Source: Patescibacteria group bacterium (GTDB taxonomy: Bacteria > Patescibacteriota > Minisyncoccia > Phycocordibacterales > Phycocordibacteraceae). Taken from it: a stretch of DNA of 64,000 bases. The notes under the pieces were generated by a model, which was not told where the DNA came from, did not search any database, and worked only from the letters and a program-made list of their open reading frames with translations. Both the position numbers and the translations under genes were made by a program. Where the stretch lies: positions 16,717 to 80,716 of the forward strand of contig JBBTSZ010000002.1 of NCBI GenBank assembly GCA_038064495.1, given 5' to 3'. Shown here in pieces: positions 25,525-49,187 of the stretch; within the stretch, counting starts at the first letter, position 1, and each line of letters opens with the position of its first letter.

Positions 25525-25526
25525 CG

Positions 25527-27782: not shown

Positions 27783-27862
27783 ATGCTACCGCGGGCGCTC
27801 TAAAAAGCCATTGGCTCGGGACTGGGCAGTAGCTGCCCTGATATGGTATTCTCCCTCCTAAC

Positions 27863-27933
27863 GCGGGATTAGTTTAATGGTAGAACATCAGTTTTCCAAA
27901 CTGAGAGCAGGAGTTCGATTCTCCTATCCCGCA
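27863..27933 (+). tRNA. tRNA-Gly (anticodon UCC)
   Basis: Acceptor GCGGGAU/AUCCCGC, anticodon arm UCAGU-UUUCCAA-ACUGA, T-arm AGGAG-UUCGAUU-CUCCU. Confidence 0.9.
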
Positions 27934-28203
27934 CATGTCAGTCTGACGGACATTTTGCCCTCTTGCGAAAAACACCCTTTTGTTGAGCCGTCCTCTGCGA
28001 TCTCGTCCTTCAGGCCTCTCTTATTGAGACGTATGGAGAATAGGACTTTTTTTCTTGTCCAATCATCAAGAGGTTATTCGAATTTGTAGATTCTAACCCT
28101 ACCAACCCACAAATATTCACCGATGGAACTAATACCTCAGTGACAGGGCCAACACAATAAATCAAGGATTTGAAAAAAATCACTTTGTGTTGTCATTTGA
28201 GTT

Positions 28204-33905: not shown

Positions 33906-33908
33906 AGA

Positions 33909-34023
33909 CCCCAGCTACTTTGTTGTTCGCTCCGGTACTCATTCACCGTATACGCACATACGGCTCATTTCGTTCCTCACTCACGCCTCGTATCTGAGGG
34001 CTTTTGAGCACACGCATTTAAAT
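33909..34023 (+). repeat. intergenic repeat family, copy A
   Basis: CCCCAGCTACTTTGTTGTTCGCTCCGGTACTCATTCACCGTATACGCACATACGG...TTCCTCACTCACGCCTCG...GCATTTAAA; ~85% identical to copy B over ~80 nt. Confidence 0.65.
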
Positions 34024-34102
34024 CAAATAGTGAAAAGAAGACCTGAAATCCATCGTAACTATCAGTCAGCCGTCTCGGTACGGACTCACAGTACCACAAA
34101 GG

Positions 34103-34133
34103 AAAAACGCCCGCTTGGCAGGCGTTTTTCGCT
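34103..34133. terminator. bidirectional intrinsic terminator (downstream of clpP on minus; also closes a possible short plus-strand transcript)
   Basis: AAAAACGCCCGCTTGGCAGGCGTTTTTC. Confidence 0.65.
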
Positions 34134-34144
34134 GTTTACGAGAT

Positions 34145-34753
34145 CTACTTTACTTTGTAGACGACGTCCACAATCCCATACTTCTTCGCCTCCTCAGCCG
34201 TTAGGAAGAAATCACGGTCCACATCGCGTTCAATTTTCTCAAGTGGCTGGCCGGACTGCTTTGCGAGAATTTTATTCAAGCGATCGCGTAGCGAGAGGAT
34301 GCGCTTCGCACTGATTTCAATATCAGCTGCCTGTCCTTCGGCACCACCATGTGGCTGATGAATCATGATGTCCGCGTTCGGAAGCGCAAAACGCTTTCCC
34401 TTAGCACCGGACGCAAGAATGATGGAGCCCATGGATGCCGCCATACCAACAGCAACCGTCGCGACGTCCGGCTTGATGTGATTCATGGCGTCAACAATGG
34501 CGAGCCCTGAGTGTACGTGCCCGCCGGGAGAATTCACGTAGAGGAAGATATCTTTCTTCGGGTCTTCGGCTTCAAGGAAGAGGAGTTGAGAAATGATGAG
34601 GTTGGCTACATCGTCATCAATACCACCGCCAAGAAACACAATGCGCTCACGAAGAAGGCGTGAGTAGATATCGTAGGCTCGCTCGCCGAACTGCGATTTC
34701 TCGATAACCATAGGAACAAGCATGGACGCGCTCGGAAGGGTAGTTTTTTTCAT
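34145..34753 (-). CDS. clpP: ATP-dependent Clp protease proteolytic subunit
   Basis: Catalytic Ser (GMAASMG) and His (MIHQP) motifs. Confidence 0.9.
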
Positions 34754-34825
34754 ACGTAAGCAGTTAGTGAAGGCATAGTACCAAAAAAGCTAGGTTTGTG
34801 AAAAACACGCCTTGGTCCCAGGAAT

Positions 34826-34981
34826 TTATTGCACTGCTGTCGGCACGGTGTTTCGGGCCTGTTGTTCAGCAAGGCGTTGGCCCCACACATAAAACGCACC
34901 AACGATAAGGAGAAAAACGATAAGCAGAATCGCGAGCACGCTGCCGGTAGAACTCTTTGGCGCAAAGTCTTCTTCATCCAT
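34826..34981 (-). CDS. possible 51-aa single-pass membrane peptide (MDEEDFAPKSSTGSVLAILLIVFLLIVGAFYVWGQRLAEQQARNTVPTAVQ)
   Basis: Read by eye; not in the ORF track (<60 aa); alternative to the compositionally odd 75-aa ORF 34750..34977 in another frame. Confidence 0.3.
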   Translation of the reverse strand: MDEEDFAPKSSTGSVLAILLIVFLLIVGAFYVWGQRLAEQQARNTVPTAVQ

Positions 34982-35074
34982 AGGGAAAGTATATGCCTAC
35001 CCTACGCACACGCGAAATGGTGGATATGAAAAAGCGCCAGCAAGGGTACTGTCGCTTTTTCAGAGAAGCAGGAC

Positions 35075-35593
35075 TTACTTCTTAGTGCTATAGAGCTCGC
35101 ACGCACGTGCAAAAGCCTGTTTCGCTACGTCCTTACCTTCAAATCCGTTAATCACTACTTCCTTATTTTGTAGTTGCTTGTAGGTACTGTAGAAATGTTC
35201 AACTTCTTTTAGAGTGTGCTTGTTCACATCAGCAAGGTCGTTCACTTCCTTCCAGCGTGGGTCGTCTACTGGTACCGCAATAACTTTATCGTCAGCATCT
35301 CCAGCATCAATCATGTGCATGATGGCGACCGGACGGGCACGTACCAAAATACCGGGCGCAAGCGGATAGCTGGTGAGCAAGATGACATCAAGCGCGTCCC
35401 CGTCATCCCAGAGTGTCTGAGGCACAAAGCCATAATCTACCGGGAACGCTTGAGTGGTATAGGAAACACGATCAAGCGCAATAAGACCTGTTTCCTTATC
35501 CACCTCGTACTTATTCATAGAGCCCTTGTTGATTTCAATGATGACGTTCATTTCGTCAGCGGTTCCCGGAGCAATATCGTGTAGCAAGTTCAT
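35075..35593 (-). CDS. ppa: inorganic pyrophosphatase
   Basis: Family I PPase motifs (DGDALDVILL, DxxDxK). Confidence 0.9.
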   Translation of the reverse strand: MNLLHDIAPGTADEMNVIIEINKGSMNKYEVDKETGLIALDRVSYTTQAFPVDYGFVPQTLWDDGDALDVILLTSYPLAPGILVRARPVAIMHMIDAGDADDKVIAVPVDDPRWKEVNDLADVNKHTLKEVEHFYSTYKQLQNKEVVINGFEGKDVAKQAFARACELYSTKK

Positions 35594-35616
35594 GATAGGT
35601 GTATGTAAGCGATTAG

Positions 35617-37026
35617 TTAGGCTTCGTCGCGCGCGTCGTCCGCGTCAGCAATAGAGGCGTTGTCTTCATCTGATTTAGTGGATTCTGCTTCAGCAGAAAG
35701 GGTATTGTTTTCACTATCATCCTCGGTGACGATTGAATCTGACTCACCAGTGTCCACGCCAGCTTCCTTTGCAGGATCTGATTCCTCCGCTGCTTCAGCG
35801 ATTTCAATTGCTATTTCGGCGTCCGCAATAGCCGCACCTGCAGCAGCAACGCGGGCTGATGCGGAAGACTCCTCAGGAGCAGCTTCAGCAACGTTACTTC
35901 CACCAACTGAATTAATATCAATATTCCAGCCGGTCAGTTTTGCAGAAAGGCGTACATTCTGTCCTCCACGACCAATCGCAAGAGATTGCTGGTCCTCAGA
36001 CACGGTTACCTTTGCACGGTGGTCTGCTTCATCAAGCTCAACAGAGAGCACGGACGCAGGTGAAAGCGACTCCTTAATAAAGGAGGTAGGATCCTCAGAC
36101 CATTCAATGATATCAATGCGCTCACCACCGAGCTCACTCATAACGGTAGATACACGTACACCACGCTGGCCCACAAGAGAACCAACCGGGTCCACATGTG
36201 CTTCAACGGATGCAATCGCAATTTTGGTGCGACTTCCTGGCTCACGCGCGAGACCCTTTACCTCGATTGCTCCCGAAGCAAGTTCCGGTGCCTCCATCTC
36301 AAAGAGTTTAATCACAAAGCGAGGATGACTACGAGAAAGGCGAAGATACACGCCACGGAATCCCTCATCTACGGCGTAGAGGTAGGCACGAATACGCTCA
36401 CCGGGACGGTACCGCTCACCGGGAATCTGTTCCTCGTACGGGATGATACCGGTTGCACGTCCGAGGTCGATGAAGATGGCACCACGCTCAACGCGCTGTA
36501 CGACACCGGAGACAATCTCACCCTTCTTGTGACCAAACTCATCAAGAATAGAAATCTTTTCTGCCTCGCGAATCTTTTGAATTACTACCTGCTTTGCGGT
36601 TTGGGCAGCAATGCGACCGAAGTCGTCCTGTGGTTCAAGAGGGAAGACAATCTCATCCCCAAGTGCAACATCGCGCTTAATGCGACGAGCGTCATCAATC
36701 AGCATGTGCTTCTCAGCGTCGTAGCGCGGAAGTTCACCTTCAGCTACTTCCTCTTCGCGGTCGTGGTGCGGATGAACGATTTCCTCCTCCTCACCTTCCT
36801 CCGGGAAGCGAACCATAGTGTCATCAACGACGGTCTTCACCTGCTCAAAGGTAACGGTACCGGAATTCATATCCAGTTTTCCACGAACAATTTGTCCGCG
36901 CTTTCCGTACTCCTTCTTATAGGCAGTCGCCATAGCGCTTTCAATAGCGTCTACCATGACTTCTTTTGTGATACCGCGCTCTTCAAACTCACCGAGCACT
37001 GAATTGATTGTCTTGAGGTCCAACAT
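35617..37026 (-). CDS. nusA: transcription termination/antitermination factor NusA with acidic C-terminal tail
   Basis: Conserved N-terminus MLDLKTINSVLGEFEERGITKEVMVDAIESAMATAYKK, S1 and KH regions; start taken at Met 9 of ORF. Confidence 0.9.
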   Translation of the reverse strand: MLDLKTINSVLGEFEERGITKEVMVDAIESAMATAYKKEYGKRGQIVRGKLDMNSGTVTFEQVKTVVDDTMVRFPEEGEEEEIVHPHHDREEEVAEGELPRYDAEKHMLIDDARRIKRDVALGDEIVFPLEPQDDFGRIAAQTAKQVVIQKIREAEKISILDEFGHKKGEIVSGVVQRVERGAIFIDLGRATGIIPYEEQIPGERYRPGERIRAYLYAVDEGFRGVYLRLSRSHPRFVIKLFEMEAPELASGAIEVKGLAREPGSRTKIAIASVEAHVDPVGSLVGQRGVRVSTVMSELGGERIDIIEWSEDPTSFIKESLSPASVLSVELDEADHRAKVTVSEDQQSLAIGRGGQNVRLSAKLTGWNIDINSVGGSNVAEAAPEESSASARVAAAGAAIADAEIAIEIAEAAEESDPAKEAGVDTGESDSIVTEDDSENNTLSAEAESTKSDEDNASIADADDARDEA

Positions 37027-37186
37027 ATGTCTGTATTTAATTGTTCGCACCAGGGATTGATTGCTCGCCCTTTAATAAGAAATGCCCGCTTCGCGGACAT
37101 CTCGGATACCCATAACGTACCATATATAGGAGCACTTCGTCAATAAACACCAATGTGGTAGGGTGGCTCCAGAAAGGAGAGCACTC

Positions 37187-37387
37187 ATGCCGAGGCTTTT
37201 TGTGAGCTGGGTGGACCGCTGTCCATCAAAACCTATCGAGTTTGGAAACACTACGCTCGACTATCACGATCCGAGTTCTGATAAAGATATCAAACTACTC
37301 CAGCTCACTATTGGGAATAGGCTGGAGAAGGAAGTAGGAGGGATTCATATTGTTACCATCCTGTGGTTTAAGCTATTGACTGAATAA
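37187..37387 (+). CDS. small hypothetical protein (66 aa) upstream of pilB
   Basis: Strong SD AAAGGAG 7 nt before ATG at 37187. Confidence 0.4.
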   Translation: MPRLFVSWVDRCPSKPIEFGNTTLDYHDPSSDKDIKLLQLTIGNRLEKEVGGIHIVTILWFKLLTE

Positions 37388-37460
37388 TTCTCCACGATTG
37401 CACCATATACGCGCCGCATCTTCTCGTGCGGCGCGTTATACTTTTAGCAAGCATCTTTCT

Positions 37461-39215
37461 ATGCAAGTTTCAGAGACCGAACTAAAAACTTTTATTCTCG
37501 ATTCCGGGCTTGTTCCACGCAAAGATGTGGAAGCGGCAGACGAGGAAGCCAAGAAACGAAATCAATCCATCGGTGACATTCTGGTGTCATCCGGCGCACT
37601 CACTCCAGACGCACTTCGTCGCATCAAGGCGTACGTGCTCGGTATCCCTTTCGTGAATCTAAAAGATAAGAAGATTGAGCTCGATGTGCTCTCCCTTATC
37701 CCGGAGCCAATCGCACGCACGCACAGCATTGTCGCGTTTCGTAAGGACGGCACGAACCTTGAAGTGGCGATGCTTGATACCCAGGACCTCCAAGCCATCG
37801 ATTCAGTCAGAAAGAAGACCGGACTCAAGATTTTGCCTCGTCTTACGGACGACGACTCTCTCAAACACTCACTCCTTCAGTATCAAAAATCCCTTAAAGA
37901 GGAGTTTGGTGACCTCATTGCGACCGAGGCTGGCAGGATTAACCTAATAAAGGACGCGGACGGAGATGATGTCTCCGGTGAGGACCTAAAGAAAATGGCA
38001 GAAGACCTGCCAATTGTGCGTATTGTAGACACCCTCCTTCGTCACGCCATCATCCAGGATGCTTCCGATATTCATATTGAACCTATAGAGGAGGCAACGC
38101 TCGTGCGGTACCGCATCGACGGCATTCTCCACGACGCGATGACGCTCCCGAAGAATGCAGGTCCCGGCATCACCGCTCGTATTAAGGTGCTTGCAAACTT
38201 AAAGCTCGACGAGAAGCGTCTTCCCCAGGACGGACGTTTCAAGATGGAAACCGAGACCGACAAAGTGTCCTTCCGTGTCTCACTTCTCCCAACCTACTAC
38301 GGAGAAAAAATCGTGATGCGTCTTTTGCGTGAGACCGGCGACGGGTTCTCCCTTGAAGGGCTCGGGTTCCACGGAGAAACTCTTGAGCGCATCCACTCCG
38401 CAACCAAACAAACGACGGGCATCATCCTCATCTCAGGACCAACGGGTTCCGGTAAAACCACGACCTTGTACACGGTGCTCGATATCTTGAATCGTCCGGA
38501 CGTGAACATCTCCACGATTGAAGACCCGATTGAATATCAGATGAAGCGCGTGAACCAAACGCAGGTGAACCCAGCCATCGGCTTCACGTTTGCAAACGGA
38601 CTACGCGCACTCCTTCGCCAGGACCCGAACGTCATCATGGTGGGAGAAATTCGTGATGGTGAGACTGCCTCGCTCGCGATTAATGCAGCACTCACCGGAC
38701 ATGTCGTACTTTCTACTATTCACACCAACTCCGCGAGTGGCGCCATTCCGCGTTTGATGGATATGGGCGTGGAACCCTTCCTCCTCGTGTCCACCCTGAA
38801 GCTGATTGTGGGACAGCGTCTCGTCCGTAGACTCTGTGACGACAAAGAAGCCTATACGCTTGATGATACGGAGCGTGCAAAAGTCGCAGCTGACGAGCAT
38901 TTTGAAGCGGCGTTCGGTGCACTTAAAGAAGAAAAGCTCACCAAGGACGACATGAAGCTCGGAGCACTTCCGTTCTATCATCCCAAACCGTCTGCAGAGT
39001 GTGAGGACGGGTACAAGAGCCGACTCGGTATTCATGAAATCCTTGCCGTTTCTCCAACCATCAAGGATTTAATTCTCCACGGCGCGTCTCCCGACGATAT
39101 TGAAAAGCAGGCACGCAAAGAAGGAATGCTCACGATGCTTGAAGACGGCATCTTCAAAGCCGCACGTGGCGTGACCTCACTTGAAGAAGTGCTTCGCGCC
39201 GTCAACGACGGGTAG
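37461..39215 (+). CDS. pilB: type IV pilus assembly ATPase PilB (GspE family)
   Basis: N-terminal GSPII_E_N-like region, Walker A GPTGSGKTTT, Asp box, His box; start taken at MQVSETEL. Confidence 0.85.
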   Translation: MQVSETELKTFILDSGLVPRKDVEAADEEAKKRNQSIGDILVSSGALTPDALRRIKAYVLGIPFVNLKDKKIELDVLSLIPEPIARTHSIVAFRKDGTNLEVAMLDTQDLQAIDSVRKKTGLKILPRLTDDDSLKHSLLQYQKSLKEEFGDLIATEAGRINLIKDADGDDVSGEDLKKMAEDLPIVRIVDTLLRHAIIQDASDIHIEPIEEATLVRYRIDGILHDAMTLPKNAGPGITARIKVLANLKLDEKRLPQDGRFKMETETDKVSFRVSLLPTYYGEKIVMRLLRETGDGFSLEGLGFHGETLERIHSATKQTTGIILISGPTGSGKTTTLYTVLDILNRPDVNISTIEDPIEYQMKRVNQTQVNPAIGFTFANGLRALLRQDPNVIMVGEIRDGETASLAINAALTGHVVLSTIHTNSASGAIPRLMDMGVEPFLLVSTLKLIVGQRLVRRLCDDKEAYTLDDTERAKVAADEHFEAAFGALKEEKLTKDDMKLGALPFYHPKPSAECEDGYKSRLGIHEILAVSPTIKDLILHGASPDDIEKQARKEGMLTMLEDGIFKAARGVTSLEEVLRAVNDG

Positions 39216-39232
39216 GAGGACATCCTCACATT

Positions 39233-39330
39233 CCCAACTGCTTTGTTGTTCGCTCAGGTACTCGTTCACCGTATATGAATACGACTCACTTCATTCCTCA
39301 CTCACGTCTCGCATTTAAAAACGTGAGAAC
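39233..39330 (+). repeat. intergenic repeat family, copy B (directly upstream of pilC)
   Basis: CCCAACTGCTTTGTTGTTCGCTCAGGTACTCGTTCACCGTATATGAATACGACTCACTTCATTCCTCACTCACGTCTCGCATTTAAAAA. Confidence 0.65.
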
Positions 39331-39354
39331 GTCCTCATGCTACGATATTTGTAA

Positions 39355-40572
39355 ATGAAATTCCGAGTCACGCTCAAGAGTGAGAATGGTTCTGAAGAGA
39401 AGCGGGTAATAGAGGCCGCGTCACGTTTCGCAGTATATGGAGAAGTAGAGAAAGAGGGTGCCACAGTGGTCTCTATTGAAGACGGAGAGGGGAGCACGAT
39501 TGATTTTAAGAAACTCACCACCTTTAATATCGGCACCGGAGTGAAGTTTGAAGAGCGTATTGTCTTTACGAAAAACCTTTCAGCCATGCTTTCAGCAGGG
39601 CTTTCACTTTCTCGTGCACTCTCTGTTATTGAGCGTCAAACGCGCAACAAACGCTTGAAGGAGATTGTCGTGAGTCTCTCAGAAGAGGTGAAGAAAGGCT
39701 CTGCGTTCCACGAGGCGCTTGCCATGCATCCAAAGATCTTCACCAAGCTCTTTATTGCGATGACAAAAGCAGGAGATGAGTCCGGCACCGTTGCCGATGC
39801 ACTGAAGATTGTGGCTCGACAGATGGAACGTTCCAACAACCTCAGCAAGAAGATCCGCGGCGCGATGATTTATCCGTGCATTATTCTCTCCGCCATCGTT
39901 ATTATCGGTGTGCTGATGCTTATGTACGTGGTCCCAACGCTCTCCAATACCTTTAAGGAACTCGGTGTTGCACTTCCATTTGCGACACAGGTCATTGTGA
40001 ATGCGTCCGACTTCATGGCCTCGCACGTGATTCTGGTGTTCATTATGCTCGGAGCATTCTTCGGCATCATTCTCCTCTTCACACGCTCAAAGGTTGGCTC
40101 ACGCTTGATACTTGCCGCATCGCTCCACATGCCGGTGATTGGAGACCTCGTGCGCGAAACCATGAGCGCTCGCGCCGCTCGAACCATGTCCTCACTCCTT
40201 ACGTCCGGAGTTGAAATGCTTACGGCTATTTCCATTACGGAAGAAGTGGTTGGAGACAATATCTTCGGAAAGGTAGTCGGAGAAGCTGCCGTACGTGTAA
40301 AAAAGGGTGAGGCACTTTCAGCTGCCTTCATGGCCTATCCAGATCTCTATCCCGTCTTTATCTCAGACATGATTGCCGTGGGTGAAGAAACCGGAAATGT
40401 CTCTAACATGCTTCTGCAGGTGGCTGAATACTACGAAACGGACGTGGAAGACCGCACGAAAGATTTATCCACAATCATTGAACCCATTCTCATGCTCGTC
40501 ATCGGTGTTGCGGTCGGTATTTTTGCGGTTGCGATGATTACGCCGATTTACTCCCTCTCTTCAAAGATCTAA
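39355..40572 (+). CDS. pilC: type IV pilus inner-membrane platform protein PilC (GspF family)
   Basis: Two T2SSF-type repeats with 3 TM helices. Confidence 0.85.
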   Translation: MKFRVTLKSENGSEEKRVIEAASRFAVYGEVEKEGATVVSIEDGEGSTIDFKKLTTFNIGTGVKFEERIVFTKNLSAMLSAGLSLSRALSVIERQTRNKRLKEIVVSLSEEVKKGSAFHEALAMHPKIFTKLFIAMTKAGDESGTVADALKIVARQMERSNNLSKKIRGAMIYPCIILSAIVIIGVLMLMYVVPTLSNTFKELGVALPFATQVIVNASDFMASHVILVFIMLGAFFGIILLFTRSKVGSRLILAASLHMPVIGDLVRETMSARAARTMSSLLTSGVEMLTAISITEEVVGDNIFGKVVGEAAVRVKKGEALSAAFMAYPDLYPVFISDMIAVGEETGNVSNMLLQVAEYYETDVEDRTKDLSTIIEPILMLVIGVAVGIFAVAMITPIYSLSSKI

Positions 40573-40589
40573 GGAGTGTGTTTAAAAAT

Positions 40590-40700
40590 CCCAACTCCTT
40601 CGTTATCCACTGCTCTCAAAGATTCACCGTACTAAAGAGTAGGACTCGTCTTTTCCTTTGTGGGCGTCTCGGATTTGCGAATTTTTTAGCTCACACTCCA
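40590..40700 (+). repeat. intergenic repeat family, copy D (diverged; upstream of pilin gene)
   Basis: TCCCAACTCCTTCGTTATCCACTGCTCTCAAAGATTCACCGTACTAAAGAGTAGGACTCGTCTTTTCC...GCGTCTCGGATTT; shares blocks CCCAACT, CTT.GTT, TTCACCGTA, GACTC, CGTCTCG.ATTT with A/B. Confidence 0.5.
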
Positions 40701-40725
40701 CGTTTGCGTGCGGTATCATACGTGC

Positions 40726-42450
40726 ATGGTTCCTTCTCGTTCCATTCGCGGTGTCACACTCGTAGATGCGATTGTTGGTTCTGCACTCGTTCTCGTTATT
40801 TTCCTTGCACTTGTGGGCCTCATGCGTGCCTCACTCCTCGTTGCTTCTCTCGCAAAAGTAAAAGCCGGCGCAACTGCCGTTGCAAACACGCAACTGGAGT
40901 ATATTCGCTCACTTCCGTACGACTCAGTCGGAACCGTTGGTGGTATTCCTGCCGGCGAGATTGCTCAGTATTCAACTACTACCCAAAACTCCGTCGCCTA
41001 CGGCCTAAAAACATTCATTGAGTATGTAGACGACCCTGCTGACGGAACTGATGCGGCTGACACAAACACCATCACCACGGACTACAAACAGGTAAAAGTC
41101 ACGGTGAGTTATCTGGTGAAGGGACAACTCCGACAGGTTTCAATGGTCTCAAATTATGCTCCCCCTTCTATCGAAACGGCAACGAACGGAGGAACACTCA
41201 AGGTAATTGTAGTAAACGCAACCGGAGCGCCTGTCGCAGGTGCGCAGGTGCGCGTGGTAAATGCAAGTACGTCACCCACCATTGATGTCACGACGTTCTC
41301 TGACGTGCTTGGAGAAGTCTTGCTCGGGGGTGCCGCGACGTCCACACAGTATCAAGTATATGTCTCTAAAACTGGCTACTCCAGCGCTCAAACATATGCG
41401 CGGGATGGAACGAATCAGAATCCTAACCCGGGATATCTTACGGTAGTAAAGAACGCTACGACCGCGGGAACCTTTGCCATTGACGCGCTAGCCTCCTTTA
41501 CGATGAATACTTATTTCCCAATTGCAGCAACCACCACACTTGACGCATTTAACGATACTTCACTACTCGCGAGTCAGACAAATACGCAGATAAATGCAAG
41601 TGAGCTAACCTTGTTGGATAACGGCGCAACGGGGTACTCCTTAAGTGGTTCAGCTGATTCTGTTGCTATTTCGCCTCCACTTCTTGTGTCTTGGGTCGTT
41701 GCTTCAACCACCACTTCTTCGCCATCTGGGACACAAGCTCGCGTGAGAGTCTATGACGGAAGCGGATACCTCCTCCCCGATGCAGAAGTCCCGGGGAACA
41801 GCTCCGGTTTTGACGGACCGTCTATTGACCTGACACAGGTATCAACGACCTCCTATCCAACGTTGTCACTTCACGCTGACCTTTCCACAAACGCAACAAC
41901 GACAACTCCCACAATTGCTTATTGGAGTATCACAGCTCTTGTAGGACCTACCCCTGCACCGAACGTCCCGTTCACGTTTACGGGAGCAAAAACCATTGGA
42001 ACAACTGGAGCTGGAGCAGCCATTTACAAAACCGTCATCTCATCACTCACTTCTGGTCTGGGCACAATCACACTTTCTCCGGAATGGGATTCCTATCTAC
42101 TTTCCGTTACAGGCTATGACGTAGTGGATGCCTGCTACGCGCCATCGTATGCGCTCTCGCCTGCGAGCGTGACCACAGCTTCTCTGTATATAGATACACA
42201 AACAGCTAACTCAATGCTTGTTGCGGTGCGCGACACCACGGGTGCGTATGTGAGTGGGGCATCAGTCACTCTGTCTCGCACTGGTTACTCAAGTACCGTC
42301 CAAACCTCATCCTGCGGTGCGGCGTACTTTGGAAGTATTACGGCAGATAATGCATACAGCGTACAAATTCAAAAGACAGGCTACACAACTACCACGTACA
42401 CGAACGTAACGGTTGGCGGCCAGACGTTTTATTCAGCTTCTTTCCCGTAA
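40726..42450 (+). CDS. large prepilin-type (pseudopilin) protein, Thr/Ser-rich with two carboxypeptidase-regulatory-like beta-sandwich segments
   Basis: N-terminus MVPSRSIRG^VTLVDAIVGSALVLVIFLAL (type IV pilin-like, acidic residue at +5); segments LKVIVVNATGAPVAGAQVRVV... and SVTLSRTGYSSTVQ... resemble CarbopepD_reg-like folds (inference). Confidence 0.6.
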   Translation: MVPSRSIRGVTLVDAIVGSALVLVIFLALVGLMRASLLVASLAKVKAGATAVANTQLEYIRSLPYDSVGTVGGIPAGEIAQYSTTTQNSVAYGLKTFIEYVDDPADGTDAADTNTITTDYKQVKVTVSYLVKGQLRQVSMVSNYAPPSIETATNGGTLKVIVVNATGAPVAGAQVRVVNASTSPTIDVTTFSDVLGEVLLGGAATSTQYQVYVSKTGYSSAQTYARDGTNQNPNPGYLTVVKNATTAGTFAIDALASFTMNTYFPIAATTTLDAFNDTSLLASQTNTQINASELTLLDNGATGYSLSGSADSVAISPPLLVSWVVASTTTSSPSGTQARVRVYDGSGYLLPDAEVPGNSSGFDGPSIDLTQVSTTSYPTLSLHADLSTNATTTTPTIAYWSITALVGPTPAPNVPFTFTGAKTIGTTGAGAAIYKTVISSLTSGLGTITLSPEWDSYLLSVTGYDVVDACYAPSYALSPASVTTASLYIDTQTANSMLVAVRDTTGAYVSGASVTLSRTGYSSTVQTSSCGAAYFGSITADNAYSVQIQKTGYTTTTYTNVTVGGQTFYSASFP

Positions 42451-42490
42451 TATGCGTGACTCCACTCCGTCAGAGAACAAATCGCGAGGA

Positions 42491-43099
42491 ATGCTAAAAA
42501 AACAAAAGCATTGTCTACCAGGATTCACTCTAGTTGAAATGATTGTCGTAATTTTTGTTACGGGTATTGTAGGGATTGCACTAAACTCTCTCATTGTAAA
42601 TTTTTATCGCTCAAATGCGTACTTGCTTCAGCAAACTTCAGCAATTGACAGTGCTCATCGCGGACTTGAGACTTCCTTTGTTGATTTGCGTGAGGCATCG
42701 TATGGCGACGATGGTTCGTATCCAATTCTGTCAGCAGCAACCTCCTCAGTCATCTTTTTCAGCGACATTAACGGAGATGGTTCGGTTGAGAAAGTTCGCT
42801 TGTATCTACAAAGTGGTACTTTCTATCGCGGTGTTACTAACTCCACCTCGAGCCCACCGGTCTACACTGGGCAATCTGAAGCAACAACGACCATTGCGAC
42901 GTACGTACGAAACGCCTCCAGCACACCACTCTTCAGGTATTACGGTGTAGATGGTATAGAACTCTCCGCGACAAGTACGGTAGATGTTTCAAAGATTAGT
43001 TCAGTATCAACCTCTGTCATGGTGGACCTCAATCCGCTTCGCGCACCTGATATCCTTACGCTACAAGCAACTGCCACTCTCAGAAACCTTCGACAATAA
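42491..43099 (+). CDS. prepilin-type minor pilin/pseudopilin
   Basis: Canonical class III signal MLKKQKHCLPG^FTLVEMIVVIFVTGIVGIAL. Confidence 0.7.
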   Translation: MLKKQKHCLPGFTLVEMIVVIFVTGIVGIALNSLIVNFYRSNAYLLQQTSAIDSAHRGLETSFVDLREASYGDDGSYPILSAATSSVIFFSDINGDGSVEKVRLYLQSGTFYRGVTNSTSSPPVYTGQSEATTTIATYVRNASSTPLFRYYGVDGIELSATSTVDVSKISSVSTSVMVDLNPLRAPDILTLQATATLRNLRQ

Positions 43100-43101
43100 T
43101 T

Positions 43102-44526
43102 ATGCACACCTCACCCCGCGGATACCTTATGCTTATGGCCATTGTATTCGGCTCCATTTTTCTTGGTGTTGTTGGGGCTCTCAGTAGCTTTGTACTGACG
43201 GAAAATAAACTGCAAAGCAGTAACACTGATAAAAACAAAGGATTTGCAATTGCGGAAGCTGGTATTGAATACTACAAATGGCATCTCGCACACTTTCCAG
43301 CTGACTTACAGAATGGAACAGGGGTACCGGGACCGTACACTATTCCATATTACGACCCAGAAACGGGTGCGCAGACAGGAACAGTTACTCTTACCGTCAC
43401 CGGGAACAGTTTGTGTGGGGGAGTAACTTCCATAGATCTAGAATCAAAAGGACAGTCTGTTGGGAGTACGAAAACGGCTACTATTTTTGCCCGTTATGCC
43501 AGGCCCACTGTTGCCGAATACGCATATGTCTTAAACAATACGGTCTGGGCAGGCGCAGATCGCATTATTAACGGCAAATACCACAGTAATGGAGGAATTC
43601 GCATGGACGGGACCGCAAACGCACCCGTGACCAGTTCACTTTCAAGCTGGTCGTGTACGTCGTCCTACGGTTGTAGTCCAACTGCGACAAAAGACGGTGT
43701 TTGGGGAGCGGGACCAAACCAAAATCTCTGGAGCTTTCCTGTACCACAGATAGACTTCTCAGCAATTGCAGCGAATTTTACGACACTCCAAGCAACGGCA
43801 CAGGCACAGGGTATTTATTATTCACGGTTTAGTTCTGGGAATGGGGGGGTCTCCTTCTACAAGGGCTACCACTTAGTCTTTAATAATGGTGGAACCGTAA
43901 CGGTCTATAAAGTAACAAGCCAAAATATTCTTCAGGCTTGGCCAATTAACAATCCAAGCGCCTCAAGCCAGATTTCTGACTATACGAGCATCAAGAATGA
44001 AACCCTCGTTGGTACGTACACCATCCCTGCTGCTTGCCCACTTATTTATATTGAGGACCATGTGTGGATTGAAGGAGTCGTAAGTCAAAAAGTGACCGTG
44101 GTGGCAGCTGACGCGGTGCACTCTGGTGTCGTGCCCTACGTCGTGATTAAAGGAAATATCACCTATGCAACCAATAACGGAAGCTCAGGACTTACGGTAA
44201 TTTCTCAGGGAGACGTGCTCATCAGTCCAAACTCACCGCAAAATATGAATCTGAACGGCATCTTTATTGCGCAGACCGGGGCGTTTGGTAGGAATCTGTA
44301 CGCCTGTCCAAGTAGTTACGAGCCGAGAGGAACACTCACCATTCAAGGAACAACCGTTTCGTATAAACGAACAGGTACTCGTTGGGTGAACGGCTGTGGT
44401 TCGGGTAGTGATGCAGGGTACCAAAGTCGTATTGACTCCTATGACCGAAAACTAGCGACCGACCCACCTCCGTTTACTCCGTATACCTCAACCGACTTTA
44501 AATTCGTTGACTGGCGCCAAAAGTAA
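43102..44526 (+). CDS. PilX-like minor pilin / pilus-associated protein with N-terminal hydrophobic anchor
   Basis: MLMAIVFGSIFLGVVGALSSFVLTE N-terminus; follows pilin genes with 2-nt spacing. Confidence 0.5.
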   Translation: MHTSPRGYLMLMAIVFGSIFLGVVGALSSFVLTENKLQSSNTDKNKGFAIAEAGIEYYKWHLAHFPADLQNGTGVPGPYTIPYYDPETGAQTGTVTLTVTGNSLCGGVTSIDLESKGQSVGSTKTATIFARYARPTVAEYAYVLNNTVWAGADRIINGKYHSNGGIRMDGTANAPVTSSLSSWSCTSSYGCSPTATKDGVWGAGPNQNLWSFPVPQIDFSAIAANFTTLQATAQAQGIYYSRFSSGNGGVSFYKGYHLVFNNGGTVTVYKVTSQNILQAWPINNPSASSQISDYTSIKNETLVGTYTIPAACPLIYIEDHVWIEGVVSQKVTVVAADAVHSGVVPYVVIKGNITYATNNGSSGLTVISQGDVLISPNSPQNMNLNGIFIAQTGAFGRNLYACPSSYEPRGTLTIQGTTVSYKRTGTRWVNGCGSGSDAGYQSRIDSYDRKLATDPPPFTPYTSTDFKFVDWRQK

Positions 44527-44538
44527 GAGTGGTATCAT

Positions 44539-45288
44539 GTGCGCATGCTCATCGTCGCCAACTGGAAGGCCTTTGTAGAGACTAAAGACAAGGCGGGACG
44601 CCTTCTTGTGAGTGCAAAACGCATCAGCGCACAGCACCATCATGACATTGTGCTCGCGCCACCAGCACCCTTTCTCGGTCTCCTTGCGGGCACGAATCGT
44701 TCCAAAGTTGCATTTGCTGCGCAGGATGTTTCAGCTACGCTTGGCGGAGCGGAAACGGGTGAGGTTACGGCTCCCGTTCTCGCCGGATTCAAAGTAAGTC
44801 ATGTCATTATTGGTCACTCGGAGCGTCGTGCACGTGGAGACACTGATGTAACTGTTCTTGAAAAAGTGCGACGAGCACTTGCACACGGCCTCACTCCAAT
44901 CTTGTGCATTGGTGAAAAAACACGTGACGACGACGGGGCGTATCTGCAATTCCTACGGTCACAGCTCTCCGCCATCTACGAACCGCTGACTCTGAAAGAA
45001 CGTCTCAAAATTATTGTTGCCTATGAACCTATTTGGGCTATCAATCATGATGCTGGCGAAGCCATCGGGCACGCTGACTTAACAGAAATGGTGCTCTATA
45101 TCCGAAAGCTTCTAAGCGAGTATCTTCCTGGGAAGGGCTCAACTTCGGCGAAGATTTTGTATGGTGGTTCGGTTGAGACGGGGAATGCACGAGACCTTGC
45201 GGCAAGTTCCGGCATTGATGGGTTTCTTGTCGGCCACGCAAGTACTGATACCACGACGTTCACTGCCTTGTGTAAGGCAGTGTCCTAA
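44539..45288 (+). CDS. tpiA: triosephosphate isomerase
   Basis: ANWK, IGHSERR, active-site E region. Confidence 0.9.
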   Translation: MRMLIVANWKAFVETKDKAGRLLVSAKRISAQHHHDIVLAPPAPFLGLLAGTNRSKVAFAAQDVSATLGGAETGEVTAPVLAGFKVSHVIIGHSERRARGDTDVTVLEKVRRALAHGLTPILCIGEKTRDDDGAYLQFLRSQLSAIYEPLTLKERLKIIVAYEPIWAINHDAGEAIGHADLTEMVLYIRKLLSEYLPGKGSTSAKILYGGSVETGNARDLAASSGIDGFLVGHASTDTTTFTALCKAVS

Positions 45289-45293
45289 GCGCT

Positions 45294-46430
45294 ATGCGGA
45301 GCGTCCGCGACATACCTGAATATAAAAATGTACCTATCTTGGTACGTGCAGCACTGAACGTACCGGTCGCGGATGGCGTGGTCGTTGATACGTTCAGACT
45401 TCGTCAGGCACTGCCGACCATAGCGTATTTACAAGAGCGTGGAGCCAAAGTAATTTTACTCGGTCACGTTACCGGCACAGGAGCAGAATCTCTGAAGCCT
45501 ATGTACGAAGTACTGAAGAAAATGCTTCCTGCTGTTGAGTTCTCACCAACCACTATTGGGAAAGAAGTGCGCGCGCTCGTGCGCGCCATGCGACCGGGAG
45601 ATGTCCTCATGCTTGAGAATCTCCGCCGCTTTAAAGGAGAGGAATCAAATGACCTTGATTTTACAGCGTCACTTGCGGAACTTGCTGACGTATTTGTACA
45701 GGACGCCTTTGATGTATGTCATCGAGCACACGCATCCGTGGTAGGCCTTCCGAAGTTGCTTCCGTCGTACCTCGGACTGTTGGTAGAGAAAGAAGTTGAA
45801 GAATTATCAAAAGCGCTTTCTCCTAAACATCCCGCACTCGCGATAATTGCTGGCGCAAAATTCAGTACCAAGGAGCCAGTGCTCCATACACTTCTGTCGT
45901 CCTACGACCAGGTCTTCGTTGGCGGCGCGCTTGCGAATGACTTTCTTGAGGCTAAAGGATTTTTCGTTGCAGATTCACTCGTCTCGGGAGGAAATGAAAC
46001 CGAGATGAAGAAATTGGCAGCACTACCAGAACTTCTGTTGCCAGAAGATGTCTATGTGGCAGAAAAGGAAGCTGCGCGCTCCGAGAGCAAAATTGTGAGT
46101 GTTTCTGACATCTCTGACCACACCGCGATTCTTGATGTGGGACCGAACAGTATTACATCACTCCTTCCGTATATTAAAAAAGCGAAAACCATACTATGGA
46201 ACGGAACGCTCGGGCGGTACGAACATGGCTTTACCGAAGGAACGCGCCTTCTGGCTGAAGCCATTACCGAGAGTAACGCACACAGTATTCTTGGTGGGGG
46301 AGACACGGTAGCAGCACTTGATGCACTAGGGCTCACCAAAAAGTTCTCCTTTGTTTCTACCGGAGGTGGAGCGATGCTGGACTTCCTCGCTGAAGGAACC
46401 CTCCCTGGGCTTGAGGCGCTTACAAACTAA
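45294..46430 (+). CDS. pgk: phosphoglycerate kinase
   Basis: Global PGK similarity (N-terminal R/D basic patch, ATP-binding C-domain). Confidence 0.9.
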   Translation: MRSVRDIPEYKNVPILVRAALNVPVADGVVVDTFRLRQALPTIAYLQERGAKVILLGHVTGTGAESLKPMYEVLKKMLPAVEFSPTTIGKEVRALVRAMRPGDVLMLENLRRFKGEESNDLDFTASLAELADVFVQDAFDVCHRAHASVVGLPKLLPSYLGLLVEKEVEELSKALSPKHPALAIIAGAKFSTKEPVLHTLLSSYDQVFVGGALANDFLEAKGFFVADSLVSGGNETEMKKLAALPELLLPEDVYVAEKEAARSESKIVSVSDISDHTAILDVGPNSITSLLPYIKKAKTILWNGTLGRYEHGFTEGTRLLAEAITESNAHSILGGGDTVAALDALGLTKKFSFVSTGGGAMLDFLAEGTLPGLEALTN

Positions 46431-46833
46431 GAGCTCTCTTAATCCTTTCAGCAACACGCTCACGTTCTTCAAGACTTACCTCGGACCTCGGTTCAAAGGT
46501 AACTGGATCAGCATCAAAGAAGGGAATAAGGTGCACATGCAAATGGAATACCTTCTGACCCCCGGCAGGTTCATTGTTAATGATGATACGCATGCCTTCT
46601 GCCCCAACTCCTTCTCGTATAGCCGGAGCAATGCGTCGTGACGTCTCCATAGTCGCTCGCAAAGCTTCTGGGTCCGCATCAAAAAAGTTTCGCATGTGTT
46701 TCTTCGGAATCACAAGTGCGTGACCCGTACTATCTGGTGCGTTATTCAAAAAGGCATACGTATTCACGTCTTCAAAGAGTGGAACTGAAGGCACTTCGCG
46801 ACTGATTATTTTGCAGAAGATGCAGTCATCCAT
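46420..46833 (-). CDS. HIT-family (histidine triad) hydrolase
   Basis: HVHxHxH-type motif HLHVHLIP. Confidence 0.85.
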   Translation of the reverse strand: MDDCIFCKIISREVPSVPLFEDVNTYAFLNNAPDSTGHALVIPKKHMRNFFDADPEALRATMETSRRIAPAIREGVGAEGMRIIINNEPAGGQKVFHLHVHLIPFFDADPVTFEPRSEVSLEERERVAERIKRALSL

Positions 46834-46882
46834 ATAGGCAAAGGATACTCTATTTTCTCATTCTGTTACAATTCTCTCCACC

Positions 46883-48616
46883 ATGTACCCCCTCCACGAC
46901 GCACTTACCGATGAACTTCGTCAAGAACTGAAAGCACACGACGACTTCACAGCAGGATTGCTCGCCCGTCGCGGTATACGAACAGGCGCCGAAGCGGAAA
47001 CATTCCTCTCACCTTCCTACGAGGCGCACATCCATGACCCACTGCTCATCCTCAACCTGGAGAAGGCAGCGAAGCGTGTTGCGAGCGCACTTGATACGAA
47101 CGAGAAAATTGCAGTGTGGAGTGACTACGACTGCGACGGAATACCGGGTGGCGTCATTCTGCATGATTTTCTTAAAAAGGTCGGCGCAAATTTTTGTAAC
47201 TACATTCCGCATCGCCATAACGAAGGCTATGGTGTGAACATTCCAGGAATTGAACAATTGGCACGTGACGGGGTACAGCTCGTCATCACCGTAGATTCCG
47301 GCATCACCGACCTTGAAGCAGTTGCCCGCGCGAAAGAACTCGGCATGGATGTGATTGTGACTGACCACCATCTTCCGGGAGACATCCTACCGGACGCGTT
47401 TGCGGTCATTGATCCGAAACAACATGGTGAAACTTATCCGTTTCGTGAACTCTGCGGAGCAGGACTCGCCTGGAAGCTCGTATGCGCAGTACTCACCGTT
47501 GGTTTTACTGGGAGGGAAGCGATACCCGAAGGATGGGAAAAGTGGCTCCTTGATATGGCAGGGCTCGCAACGATTGCCGACATGGTGCCTCTTACGGGAG
47601 AGAACCGTGTTATCGCAAAGTACGGACTTCTCGTCATGCGCAAGTCTCCACGACTCGGTTTGAATAGACTCTGCAAAGTTGCCCGCGTAGACCAGCGAAA
47701 GATTACCGAGGATGACGTCGCGTTCATGATTGCTCCACGCGTGAACGCGGCGTCACGCATGGGTGACCCACGTGATGCGTTCACACTCCTCACTACTACA
47801 GACGAAACCATTGCCGATACACTCGCCAAGAAACTTGAGGCGGTGAATCGAAGTCGCAGGGCGGCAAGCGGTGCTATTACGCGCGCAGTGCATGAAAAAC
47901 TCGCGCATCGAAAAGAAACAGAAGAAATACCGGAAGTCATTGTACTTGGGGATCCCGATTGGCGACCCGGTCTTCTCGGTCTGGTTGCAAGCGGTATCGC
48001 TGACGAATACGAACGGCCGGTATTCTTGTGGGGACGGGAAGGTTCACAAGTGTTGAAGGGATCGTGCCGTGGAGGCCCGGGCGGCCTACATGTGGTTGAC
48101 CTCATGACGGCAGCGGGAGATGTCCTTTCTGAGTTTGGTGGTCATGCTGCCGCAGGAGGTTTCAGTCTACTTCCCGAAAACGTGTTTCAGCTTGAAGAAA
48201 GATTTATTCAAGCGTTCCACACACTCCCACCACCCGGGGGTGATGACCGCTTCAGTCGTGCAGACGCACATATCACCCCAAGTGAAGCGACTCGCGAACT
48301 TCTTTCGCGACTGACGCGCATGGCACCCTTTGGTATGAGCAATCCAAAACCGACCTTTGTGATGCGCGGGGTGCTACTACAGAAAGTCTCGTGGTTTGGA
48401 AAGTCTGAAGAACATCTGCGCATCACCATTACAAATGCCGTGGACGACTTTGATGAACATGCCATCGAGGCAATCGCATTTTATGCGACCCGGGAACTGG
48501 GCTCATCAGTTAAGTTGCTCACGGCAGGTTCCACAGCAACTATTTTGGCAACACTGGAGCAGGATTTGTTTACGAGGGGACAGCCGGTAAGGCTTCGCCT
48601 TGTCGCGATCACGTAG
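46883..48616 (+). CDS. recJ: single-stranded-DNA-specific exonuclease RecJ
   Basis: DHH (VITDHH) and DHHA1 motifs. Confidence 0.85.
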   Translation: MYPLHDALTDELRQELKAHDDFTAGLLARRGIRTGAEAETFLSPSYEAHIHDPLLILNLEKAAKRVASALDTNEKIAVWSDYDCDGIPGGVILHDFLKKVGANFCNYIPHRHNEGYGVNIPGIEQLARDGVQLVITVDSGITDLEAVARAKELGMDVIVTDHHLPGDILPDAFAVIDPKQHGETYPFRELCGAGLAWKLVCAVLTVGFTGREAIPEGWEKWLLDMAGLATIADMVPLTGENRVIAKYGLLVMRKSPRLGLNRLCKVARVDQRKITEDDVAFMIAPRVNAASRMGDPRDAFTLLTTTDETIADTLAKKLEAVNRSRRAASGAITRAVHEKLAHRKETEEIPEVIVLGDPDWRPGLLGLVASGIADEYERPVFLWGREGSQVLKGSCRGGPGGLHVVDLMTAAGDVLSEFGGHAAAGGFSLLPENVFQLEERFIQAFHTLPPPGGDDRFSRADAHITPSEATRELLSRLTRMAPFGMSNPKPTFVMRGVLLQKVSWFGKSEEHLRITITNAVDDFDEHAIEAIAFYATRELGSSVKLLTAGSTATILATLEQDLFTRGQPVRLRLVAIT

Positions 48617-48632
48617 AGGCCCCTGAAAAGCG

Positions 48633-48750
48633 CCCATCTGGGTTGTTACTCGCTTCGCTCAAAGCTTCACTGTACCAGCGTGTACACCTCAGCTTTTCGC
48701 TCGCTCGTGTCTAGCATCTGAACACTTTTCAGCGACCTCTTACAAGCAAG
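48633..48750 (+). repeat. intergenic repeat family, copy C (diverged; directly upstream of rnhA, ends in GTTATACT 9 nt before ATG)
   Basis: CCCATCTGGGTTGTTACTCGCTTCGCTCAAAGCTTCACTGTACCAGCGTGTACACCTCAGCTTTTCGCTCGCTCGTGTCTAGCATCTGAACACTTTTCAGC. Confidence 0.4.
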
Positions 48751-48764
48751 GTTATACTGCACAC

Positions 48765-49187
48765 ATGCATTTCACACTCTACGCAGACGGAGGAGCGCGC
48801 GGTAACCCAGGGCCAGCGGGTGCAGGCGCCGTTGTGTTTGATTCCCTCGGTAAGCGCGTGGTTGAGGTAGCTGATTACCTCGGTGTTGCAACAAATAACA
48901 TCGCCGAGTACGAAGCGATTCTGCGCGGACTTACCAAGCTCCAAGCGTCGTTTTCACAAGAACACCTCACCACTATGGAACTGACGATTCGTATGGATAG
49001 CAAACTCGTGATTGAACAGTTGAAAGGTAACTACAAAGTGAAGCATCCAAACCTCGTGCCACGGTATCTTGAGGTGAAGAATCTCATTGCACGAAATTTT
49101 ACGAAGGTGCACTTTGAGCACGTTCCACGCGAAAAGAATAAGGACGCTGATGCGCTTGCCAACGAAGCGATGGACAAGGGTCGCTGA
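48765..49187 (+). CDS. rnhA: ribonuclease HI
   Basis: YADGGARGNPGPAG...E...D...H...D RNase H fold motifs. Confidence 0.85.
   Translation: MHFTLYADGGARGNPGPAGAGAVVFDSLGKRVVEVADYLGVATNNIAEYEAILRGLTKLQASFSQEHLTTMELTIRMDSKLVIEQLKGNYKVKHPNLVPRYLEVKNLIARNFTKVHFEHVPREKNKDADALANEAMDKGR

Follow-up and report, generated by a model that had tools for sequence, protein, structure and literature searches.

The DNA analyzed here is a 64,000-nt stretch of contig JBBTSZ010000002.1 from a Patescibacteria group bacterium (hereafter the window, which always means the whole stretch). Among its genes, whose identities come from a Pfam search of the open reading frames (ORFs), are the neighbors pilB, pilC and a CarboxypepD_reg/pilin-like gene, the pair recJ and rnhA, the pair clpP and rny, and the ribosomal protein genes rpsJ and rpsO. 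Set between or behind these genes are copies of an intergenic palindromic repeat, which is the subject of this work.

A first-pass annotation of the window had listed four copies of the repeat (A to D), each of 90–115 nt. These four exist and are related beyond chance. Indeed, a repeat search within the window aligns A with B in two segments, of 43 nt (91% identity) and 36 nt (86% identity), and an nhmmer profile built from A and B recovers C (E-value 2e-5) and D (E-value 0.017) together with a further copy, named E, at 62274–62377 (E-value 4e-7; 4.4e-7). A covariance model (R1), run over the whole window with filters off, returns six full-length copies, the runner-up match reaching 11 bits (E-value ~1). 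C and D, which were left out of the R1 seed, score 47 and 57 bits (E-values of ~1e-12 to 1e-16). The window therefore holds six copies and not four, E and F having been overlooked, and the earlier extent was too short, covering only the inner part of each unit and missing an outer stem of ~20 bp. With this stem included, the units in the window are imperfect palindromes of 121–131 nt (Table 1). The blocks that had been seen as shared, and the apical hairpin in which the stem is kept and the loop varies, were described correctly. One strand of each copy folds more stably than the other and is called the better-folding strand below; it is complementary to the orientation in which the repeat was first written and corresponds to the window minus strand for A to E.

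Table 1. Copies of the element and associated features in the window and in loci from the collected genomes (labels of the form Lnnn). For the copies, the strand is the better-folding one; scores are R1 bits, folds are in kcal/mol.
Feature	Position	Strand	R1 score	Fold, minus strand	Fold, plus strand	Description
Copy F	20068–20189	+ (opposite orientation)	61.8, at 20062–20194(+)			diverged copy after rpsO
Copy A	33893–34016	−	94.4, at 33889–34021(−)	−44.0	−34.7	124-nt imperfect palindrome
Copy B	39216–39336	−	85.7	−47.9	−28.1	121-nt palindrome between pilB stop (TAG 39213–39215) and pilC ATG (39355)
Copy D	40573–40699	−	57.2			127-nt palindrome GGAGTGTG...CACACTCC right after pilC stop (TAA 40570–40572)
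Copy C	48613–48743	−	47.3	−59.7	−36.9	131-nt palindrome, base overlapping recJ stop (TAG 48614–48616)
GTTATACT octamer	48751–48758	+				−10-like box of rnhA, 6 nt before ATG; outside the repeat
Copy E	62251–62375	−	93.4	−53.9	−34.5	125-nt palindrome, 2 nt past rpsJ stop (TAA 62246–62248)
Intrinsic terminator after copy E	62390–62427	+				aaaagcaaaaccgcccgaaagggcggttttgcttttg, read from the sequence
−10-box/ATG site	window 40712–40728					
−10-box/ATG site	window 48751–48767					
−10-box/ATG site	L107 4240–4253					
−10-box/ATG site	L119 4231–4247					
−10-box/ATG site	L176 9988–10003					

The constant feature of the element in the window is its start flush after an upstream stop codon, namely those of pilB (TAG), pilC (TAA), recJ (TAG), rpsJ (TAA) and rpsO (TAG). 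The earlier remark that B, C and D end immediately before start codons is misleading, since the next start lies 18–27 nt or more away and at a variable distance. Copy D is followed by a −10-like GGTATCAT (40712–40719) and then by the ATG (40726) of the CarboxypepD_reg/pilin-like gene, and copy C by the −10 box of rnhA and the rnhA ATG (48765). The intrinsic terminator after copy E places this copy inside the tuf-rpsJ 3′ untranslated region (UTR), and beyond the terminator lies a TTGACT-17-TATAAA promoter. In copy F, the stem base contains the TAG stop (20188–20190) of rpsO, which occupies 20188–20490 on the minus strand, and the gene downstream encodes an NYN-domain protein (19475–19990, minus strand; the Pfam domains of the two genes are S15 and NYN). 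Copy A is the contextual exception: it has the clpP terminator on one side and the rny start (ATG 33884) on the other, and its better-folding strand is sense to its neighbors. Copy A, in the better-folding orientation, would form a 5′ UTR of rny and stop 8 nt short of the ATG. The intrinsic terminator after clpP (34102–34130) looks bidirectional, and ~80 nt of unassigned sequence separate it from copy A and the rny start.

The element belongs to a family found far beyond the window. A core pattern with ~24 specified bases, for which ~0.3 chance matches are expected by our own estimate, was scanned against one genome per species and matches 106 loci, nearly all of them labeled Patescibacteria (the Candidate Phyla Radiation, CPR). 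The labeled groups with matches are Saccharibacteria, Paceibacterota/Parcubacteria, Kaiser-, Campbell-, Nomura- and Peregrinibacteria, along with a few metagenome-assembled genomes (MAGs) that are labeled otherwise. Applied to those loci, R1 finds 133 copies in 739 kb, with a further copy within 8 kb in roughly one third of the loci. An alignment of 121 copies (A4), made to the model, underlies the statistics on structure, strand and position given below. The copies are not unique to the loci where they were first noticed, and their paired positions do covary. The intergenic spacers at the sites examined measure 1–30 nt, and yet this lineage has about one 125-nt hairpin element per 10 kb. At gathering threshold, tRNAs and one SAM riboswitch are the only Rfam 15 matches of the window and of 18 further loci whose copies are canonical, and E-value scans of copy A and of a canonical copy (L001) give matches at chance level (E ≥ 0.05); a known RNA family was rejected after these scans. 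A phage origin was rejected because the core pattern has 0 matches in the IMG/VR viral contigs, and a coding repeat was rejected for the window copies, whose indels are not multiples of three. The literature that we searched holds no description of this element, and the family is apparently undescribed so far.

Comparison with relatives shows what the genome looks like where the element is absent. Four syntenic 20-kb loci from four relatives (82 kb in total; RnhA 79–83% identical) give 0 matches with filters off, where the window has three copies; relatives with PilC 64–75% identical have no element beside pilC; and 65 pilC loci (334 kb) give a single match, in a distant relative. At the empty pilB/pilC site (L107), the sequence reads pilB TAA-t-ATG pilC. 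After pilC, the empty sites (L107 and L119) consist of 22–30 nt with GGTATCAT or GCTATCAT-N6-ATG directly after the stop, and the empty recJ/rnhA site (L176) reads recJ TAG-cccca-GGTATACT-N6-ATG rnhA. The window differs from these empty sites by the palindrome alone, apart from an extra 18-nt tail in copy B. The palindromes B, D and C lie between an unchanged stop codon and an unchanged −10-like box, and the C termini of the proteins are unaltered. The insertion is clean and goes into the few free nucleotides between a TAA or TAG stop and the next core promoter. At the three sites, filled versus empty, there is no target-site duplication. An origin of the outer stems in the target or in a pre-existing terminator was rejected for B, D and C, the empty sites being without a hairpin. 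The insertion of copy B has uncoupled the formerly adjacent pilB and pilC, which are now 139 nt apart.

The first-pass annotation had taken the element to carry a promoter or to be a 5′ leader, giving leaderless or short-leader mRNAs. This idea agrees with several features of the window. B, D and C precede genes with a −10-like box 6 nt before the ATG, in a leaderless-type geometry, and the 3′ arm of D supplies a weak −35-like hexamer (CTCACA-18-TATCAT). In addition, the 18-nt tail ATGCTACGATATTTGTAA between copy B and the pilC ATG (39337–39354) contains a −10-like GATATT, where L107 has a single nucleotide; this tail possibly supplied pilC with a new start signal. However, GGTATACT-N6-ATG is also found before rnhA in the element-free relatives L176 and L178, and the presence of −10 boxes in relatives without the element indicates that they are the downstream genes' own, the element having inserted upstream of them. 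In neither flank of the 121 copies is there a positionally conserved promoter signal (≤0.26 bit per position), and the distance to the next start varies from 0 to >200 nt, whereas the distance to the previous stop, to which the element is anchored, is fixed. Furthermore, copy E is followed by a terminator, copy A points at the clpP end, and 17 copies lie between convergent genes. A leader role also fails on the fold, whose optimum lies on the antisense strand relative to the mRNA of the flanking genes. The octamer GTTATACT, which had been noted before rnhA and elsewhere, is real and occurs three times in the window; against 0.92 expected, this count is not significant, and the octamer before rnhA lies outside the element and is rnhA's own −10 box. 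Together, these observations make a promoter or leader element extremely improbable, although the 3′ arm or tail may, judging by their motifs (CTCACA-18-TATCAT in D, GATATT after B), incidentally supply promoter parts.

As an observation in its own right, several genes combine a −10-like box (GGTATCAT, GGTATACT or GTTATACT) exactly 6 nt before the ATG with the lack of a Shine-Dalgarno sequence. The box is conserved in relatives as well, which suggests that genes of this lineage are commonly transcribed and translated without a leader.

Over the whole family, the full unit is an imperfect palindrome of 116–134 nt (median 123 nt), and its long-hairpin fold is real. From base to tip, the hairpin consists of a variable outer stem of ~20 bp, a conserved internal loop, variable inner stems and a conserved apical stem closed by a variable 6–8-nt loop, and an A-rich 5′ base is paired with the U-rich 3′ base of the stem. 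On the better-folding strand, the conserved internal loop is purine-rich, with C[GAGGC]G facing C[AACRAA]G; between the inner stems and the apical stem sits a tandem G·A motif (U-A, G·A, A·G, G·U), and the apical stem itself reads CCGUAY/RUACGG. Standard pairs fill 88.4% of the cells in A4, compared with 59.7% in column shuffles (0 of 500 reach the observed value) and 36%–42% when partners are slid by 1–3 columns. Changes on both sides are seen in 31 of 35 pairs, with a covariation score of 0.707 versus 0.19 in the control. This very strong covariation over 121 copies bears out the proposal, made at first pass from two hairpins, that secondary structure is under selection. The outer stem is the most variable part, with a pairwise identity of 0.32 versus 0.55 for the inner part. 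MAFFT and RNAalifold applied to raw flanks recover the apical helix only; the full structure was obtained through a column-pairing scan and the covariance model.

One locus (L013) holds two inverted copies ~450 nt apart (2522–2654 and 3110–3242), whose inner cores are 100% identical over 89 columns and whose outer stems differ by substitutions plus a matching 3-nt indel on both arms. Direct alignment led us to reject, for this pair, the idea of a core that inverts between its flanking arms. Identical cores combined with diverged outer stems and matching indels suggest gene conversion of the core, quasi-palindrome template switching, or both. These processes would inflate the apparent covariation in the outer stem, but they would not explain the conserved asymmetric loops.

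The position of the element relative to genes is as regular across the family as in the window. The upstream gene is co-oriented with the element in 86 cases versus 18, and 17 copies lie between convergent genes versus 3 between divergent genes. A long sense ORF ends −15 to +12 nt from the first paired base in 89 of the 121 copies, with a peak at −5 to −2, and the stem often has the last one to three bases of the stop codon at its base. Abutting stops comprise 40 TAA, 31 TAG and 2 TGA, so TGA is depleted beside the element (2 of 73 versus a background of 16.5%, p = 4e-4), while the distance to the next start codon is broad (0 to >200 nt). Some 14 copies are exceptions in which the same end of the element lies 3–25 nt from the start codon of an opposite-strand gene, copy A before rny included. 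Convergent genes can each have their own copy in its own orientation (e.g., L045), and copies of opposite orientation occur side by side. Replication direction was rejected as the cause of the orientation: oppositely oriented copies are found within 60–600 nt of each other, and every one of them follows a gene of its own. In part the genome imposes this tight placement, since a stop codon is separated from the next core promoter by only 1–10 free nt; the scarcity of TGA and the way in which the stop codon overlaps the stem base suggest a TA(A/G)-related target in addition. With regard to replication in the window, its GC skew is too weak to use or to place an origin. Gene orientation is mostly minus at 1–20 kb and mostly plus at 37–64 kb, and four tRNA genes (Arg-TCG, Gly-GCC, Pro-TGG and Gly-TCC) lie at 25305–27934, where the orientation switches.

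Such placement is what would be expected of a hairpin that acts in the sense mRNA, within a 3′ UTR or an intercistronic spacer, as REP, ERIC or Correia elements do, where it could protect the upstream message against 3′ exonucleases, serve as a processing site for RNase III or RNase Y, or modulate termination and ribosome release at the abutting stop. In agreement with this, several copies have a stop codon on one side and a canonical terminator on the other and so are transcribed in sense, the sense strand folds at about −41 kcal/mol, and diverged copies retain their stems. The element does not have the form of an intrinsic terminator itself: its hairpin is ~60 bp long with internal loops, its U-rich 3′ base is paired, and many copies are internal to operons (pilB-B-pilC-D). 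Separate canonical terminators follow copy E and the copies in L081, L083 and L093.

The asymmetry between the strands points away from the mRNA. For 117 of the 121 copies, the minus-type strand has the lower minimum free energy (on average −53.3, against −40.9 kcal/mol for the other strand). Strand-neutral scoring of the outer stem gives 174 G·T versus 70 A·C mismatches on the better-folding strand, and over all pairs G·U exceeds A·C by 478 to 91, or by about 262 to 90 without two conserved wobbles. At one position of the apical stem, C (63) or U (29) stands opposite an invariant G, and columns 58 and 84, which flank the G·A, A·G and G·U pairs, covary (U-A 101, C-G 12). The tandem G·A motif exists on the better-folding strand only; the opposite strand would show pyrimidine-pyrimidine mismatches there. 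In copy B, the outer stem has 7 non-Watson-Crick pairs, and every one of them reads G·U on the minus strand and A·C on the mRNA strand. Copies in mRNA-sense contexts retain the antisense-strand fold equally well, and the asymmetry is weaker but still present where the transcriptional context is reversed (G·U 1.45 versus A·C 0.80). Mutation bias was judged unlikely as the cause, since deamination on the non-template or leading strand predicts the opposite sign, and a better preservation of master copies in antisense-sense contexts was not seen. Because the orientation of the element follows the upstream gene, the mRNA carries the worse-folding strand.

For a hairpin working in the sense mRNA, these data run in the wrong direction. 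The mismatches weaken the sense RNA (A·C instead of G·U), the reverse of what is predicted, and the conserved loops become pyrimidine-pyrimidine mismatches that match no known motif. Moreover, a stabilizing hairpin needs no conserved loops, and relatives do without the element at the same genes. We therefore consider a sense-strand function unlikely.

The same strand signals all favor the better-folding strand and raise the possibility that it is transcribed as a structured RNA antisense to the upstream gene. Such an RNA could be a protein-bound small RNA, or an orientation-specific terminator or insulator that keeps antisense transcription, started for instance on the divergent side of the promoter of the next gene, from running into the gene's 3′ end. 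G·U wobbles, the tandem G·A motif, purine-rich asymmetric loops and covarying helices are typical of RNA-protein recognition; furthermore, the length is constant at about 133 nt, and the stems have A-rich 5′ and U-rich 3′ bases. The better-folding strand is certainly transcribed in ~15%–20% of the copies, as part of a 5′ UTR or of a convergent 3′ UTR, including copy A upstream of rny. However, no positionally conserved promoter lies upstream of the 5′ end of this strand. Copy E and those in L081, L083 and L093 are cut off from antisense promoters by a bidirectional-looking terminator 8–20 nt away, and the one after copy E leaves no room for a promoter that would transcribe its better-folding strand. 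Copies internal to operons (pilB-B-pilC-D) leave no promoter room either, and the in-frame copy in ileS (see below) has the same strand bias. Finally, the element is absent from close relatives and so cannot be a conserved regulator of these genes. An antisense structured RNA is thus unlikely.

The element shows the general properties of a mobile repeat, that is, presence or absence at orthologous sites and multiple dispersed copies. The suggestion of a relative of MITEs (miniature inverted-repeat transposable elements), raised at first pass, holds in this sense: copies are absent at orthologous sites in relatives, and near-identical copies with duplications are found in the MAG "Deltaproteobacteria bacterium GWF2_42_12". 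There, the hairpin lies within a ~230-nt unit of three hairpins, with CCNNAAAATAG-type termini and 4–7-bp target-site duplications (GCCTT, CTCTA, TCTAA, TCCGC and CAGTAAA). The near-identical copies and the duplications together indicate that this ~230-nt unit transposes. The unit is seen at six loci from this MAG and related ones (L048, L061, L075, L079, L097 and L101), and its occurrence in MAGs with non-CPR labels reflects either misbinning or real spread across phyla. Outside the GWF2_42_12 unit, the sequence-conserved terminal inverted repeats of a classic, DDE-dependent MITE are absent, and a target-site duplication does not accompany each copy, TA being present at both ends in a minority of copies only.

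A further form of insertion is seen in nine (mostly oral) Saccharibacteria species, where an element-like sequence of ~133 nt lies in frame inside ileS and adds ~40 residues (TFPYDTVSSDAFLVHRITDTAHSDTPESSSRTGTENSLQ) to the protein (L006, L010, L016, L020, L056, L064, L073, L087 and L088; in L073, for instance, the core match is at 6879–6930 on the minus strand). In-frame insertion of this translated type is limited to the ileS subfamily and does not apply to the window copies. The ileS copy keeps the strand bias of the family, although it lies in a coding region.

Together, these observations lead us to favor, with a confidence a little better than even, the view that the copies belong to a large, apparently undescribed family of non-autonomous mobile palindromic elements of Patescibacteria, whose fold serves a single-stranded form during mobilization and which are passive in situ. 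A trans-acting enzyme would recognize the fold and the loops of this single-stranded form, which could be bottom-strand DNA or RNA of that polarity, much as attC sites, REPs and the ends of IS200/IS605 elements are recognized as folded single strands. In situ, the element would be mostly passive cargo, its hairpin being co-transcribed in 3′ UTRs or between cistrons. Passivity is suggested by the preservation of the antisense-strand fold in mRNA-sense contexts and even inside a coding region, by the lack of a promoter for the better-folding strand, and by the terminators that directly flank several copies. The orientation bias would arise from the insertion mechanism (the sense-strand target containing TA), from selection that keeps the more stable strand out of the mRNA, or from both.

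Several points weigh against a mobile, passive element of this kind. No mobilizing enzyme was found; a Pfam search of 30 window ORFs gave only a Xer-type tyrosine recombinase. In the nine-species ortholog set, substitutions on the better-folding strand that preserve pairing outnumber those that disrupt it by only 7 to 5. The diverged copies C, D and F still keep long stems, which could mean selection for the hairpin in situ or, alternatively, quasi-palindrome template switching. The conserved G·U wobbles, tandem G·A motif and purine-rich loops look more like an RNA-protein motif than like a DNA site. With non-conserved termini and no duplication at three window sites, classic DDE-type MITE transposition does not fit. 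The near-invariance of the core is partly ascertainment bias, three core blocks having been required by the collecting pattern, although CAACRAAG, a block that this pattern did not ask for, hardly varies either. In addition, the gene context consists of ORF calls, not annotation.

A more specific version would make the element a mobile hairpin that homes to stop codons, its active form being a single strand of antisense polarity (RNA, or cDNA or single-stranded DNA) and its insertion being primed by the target or by microhomology. In this scheme, a 3′-terminal YUA would anneal to the sense-strand TAA or TAG and then be copied or joined there. Such a step would account for the flush junctions, in which the stop overlaps the stem base, for the depletion of TGA, for the absence of target duplications, for the gene-linked orientation and for a fold on the strand that is absent from the mRNA. 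It is speculative, with no reverse transcriptase or HUH enzyme found, and we rate it as quite improbable. If true, stop-codon homing would represent a kind of bacterial mobile element not described so far, SINE-like or attC-like, genome-wide and CPR-specific.

The genomes of Patescibacteria are among the smallest and most compact in bacteria, and yet these hairpin elements are frequent in them, which makes the family a case of mobile selfish DNA persisting in a streamlined symbiont genome. An antisense-strand fold and an exact placement at TAA or TAG are incompatible under any standard model, and this puzzle points to an unrecognized mechanism of single-strand mobilization or to an unrecognized antisense RNA function. 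The insertions rewire operons, as at pilB/pilC, and may matter for gene expression. Being conserved from Saccharibacteria to Paceibacteria, the family is also a practical marker for CPR annotation, where it helps to avoid false calls of small RNAs and promoters.

Among known systems, attC sites resemble the element in behavior, and the resemblance raises the question of whether it is itself an attC-like site, a folded bottom-strand DNA used by a tyrosine recombinase, the preceding genes being exchangeable or once captured. The functional strand of attC is the bottom strand. Like attC, the element is an imperfect palindrome that varies in sequence, keeps its structure and is found right after an ORF in fixed orientation, and the strand complementary to the ORF folds better; in addition, a YAAC is conserved in the better-folding strand. 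A gene for a Xer-family tyrosine recombinase (20572–21489, plus strand; Phage_integrase and N-terminal SAM-like domains) lies beside rpsO at a distance of 382 nt from copy F and probably encodes the housekeeping XerC/D. The likeness is one of behavior only. The conserved blocks of the element lie in the middle of the hairpin, where CAACRAAG faces a non-complementary CGAGGCG in the internal loop, and not at the base as complementary R″ (RYYYAAC) and R′ (GTTRRRY) boxes. Neither an integron integrase nor a cassette array was seen, the flanking genes are housekeeping genes in conserved synteny (pilB, pilC, recJ, rnhA, rpsJ and rpsO) and not cassettes, and what the empty sites lack is only the element, not a gene together with its site. 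An attC-like site is thus very unlikely.

REP/BIME elements with their RAYT enzymes and the ends of IS200/IS605 elements are extragenic palindromes that often follow stop codons, are handled as folded single-stranded DNA by HUH enzymes and leave no target duplication. The CPR unit measures 116–134 nt, whereas REPs measure 20–40 bp and carry a conserved GTAG/CGTC tag; GTAG is present in only about a third of the CPR copies, at a place where the stem covaries (of the 121 copies, 61 have T at column 113 and 54 have G at column 115). The folded CPR strand is opposite to that expected for IS200/IS605 if the TAR stop were the target, and no RAYT or TnpA was found in the DNA examined. An overview of REP elements is available (PMC3733652).

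The CPR element resembles ERIC (enterobacterial repetitive intergenic consensus, or IRU, ~127 bp), with which it shares an imperfect palindrome of ~125–130 nt, many copies in transcribed intergenic regions (3′ UTRs or intercistronic), presence or absence at orthologous sites, conservation over a broad taxon and a lack of coding capacity (PMC2759123). The two differ in that there is no sequence relation and another phylum is concerned, and in that the CPR element has variable ends and a conserved middle, lies flush to stop codons, folds better on the antisense strand and shows no TA duplication at the window sites. The Correia elements of Neisseria (NEMIS/CREE) are palindromic non-autonomous elements of ~100–155 bp that are abundant in a small genome and are co-transcribed into long RNA hairpins; their terminal inverted repeats, of 26 bp, are conserved, and TA is duplicated at the target. 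The CPR element is likewise palindromic, non-autonomous, of similar size and at home in small genomes, but its termini are variable and sites B, D and C are without duplication. Rickettsia palindromic elements (RPE), which are repeats of ~100–150 bp in a reduced-genome symbiont or parasite, can insert in frame into protein genes and be translated, as is the ileS subfamily in nine Saccharibacteria species; there is no sequence relation to RPE, and most CPR copies are extragenic and abut stop codons. Together, these comparisons show that an interspersed palindromic non-autonomous element is a known kind of object, represented by ERIC, Correia, RPE and REP, and that the CPR family departs from it in its conserved middle and variable ends, its constant length, its abutment to stop codons, its fold on the antisense strand and its conservation across CPR classes.

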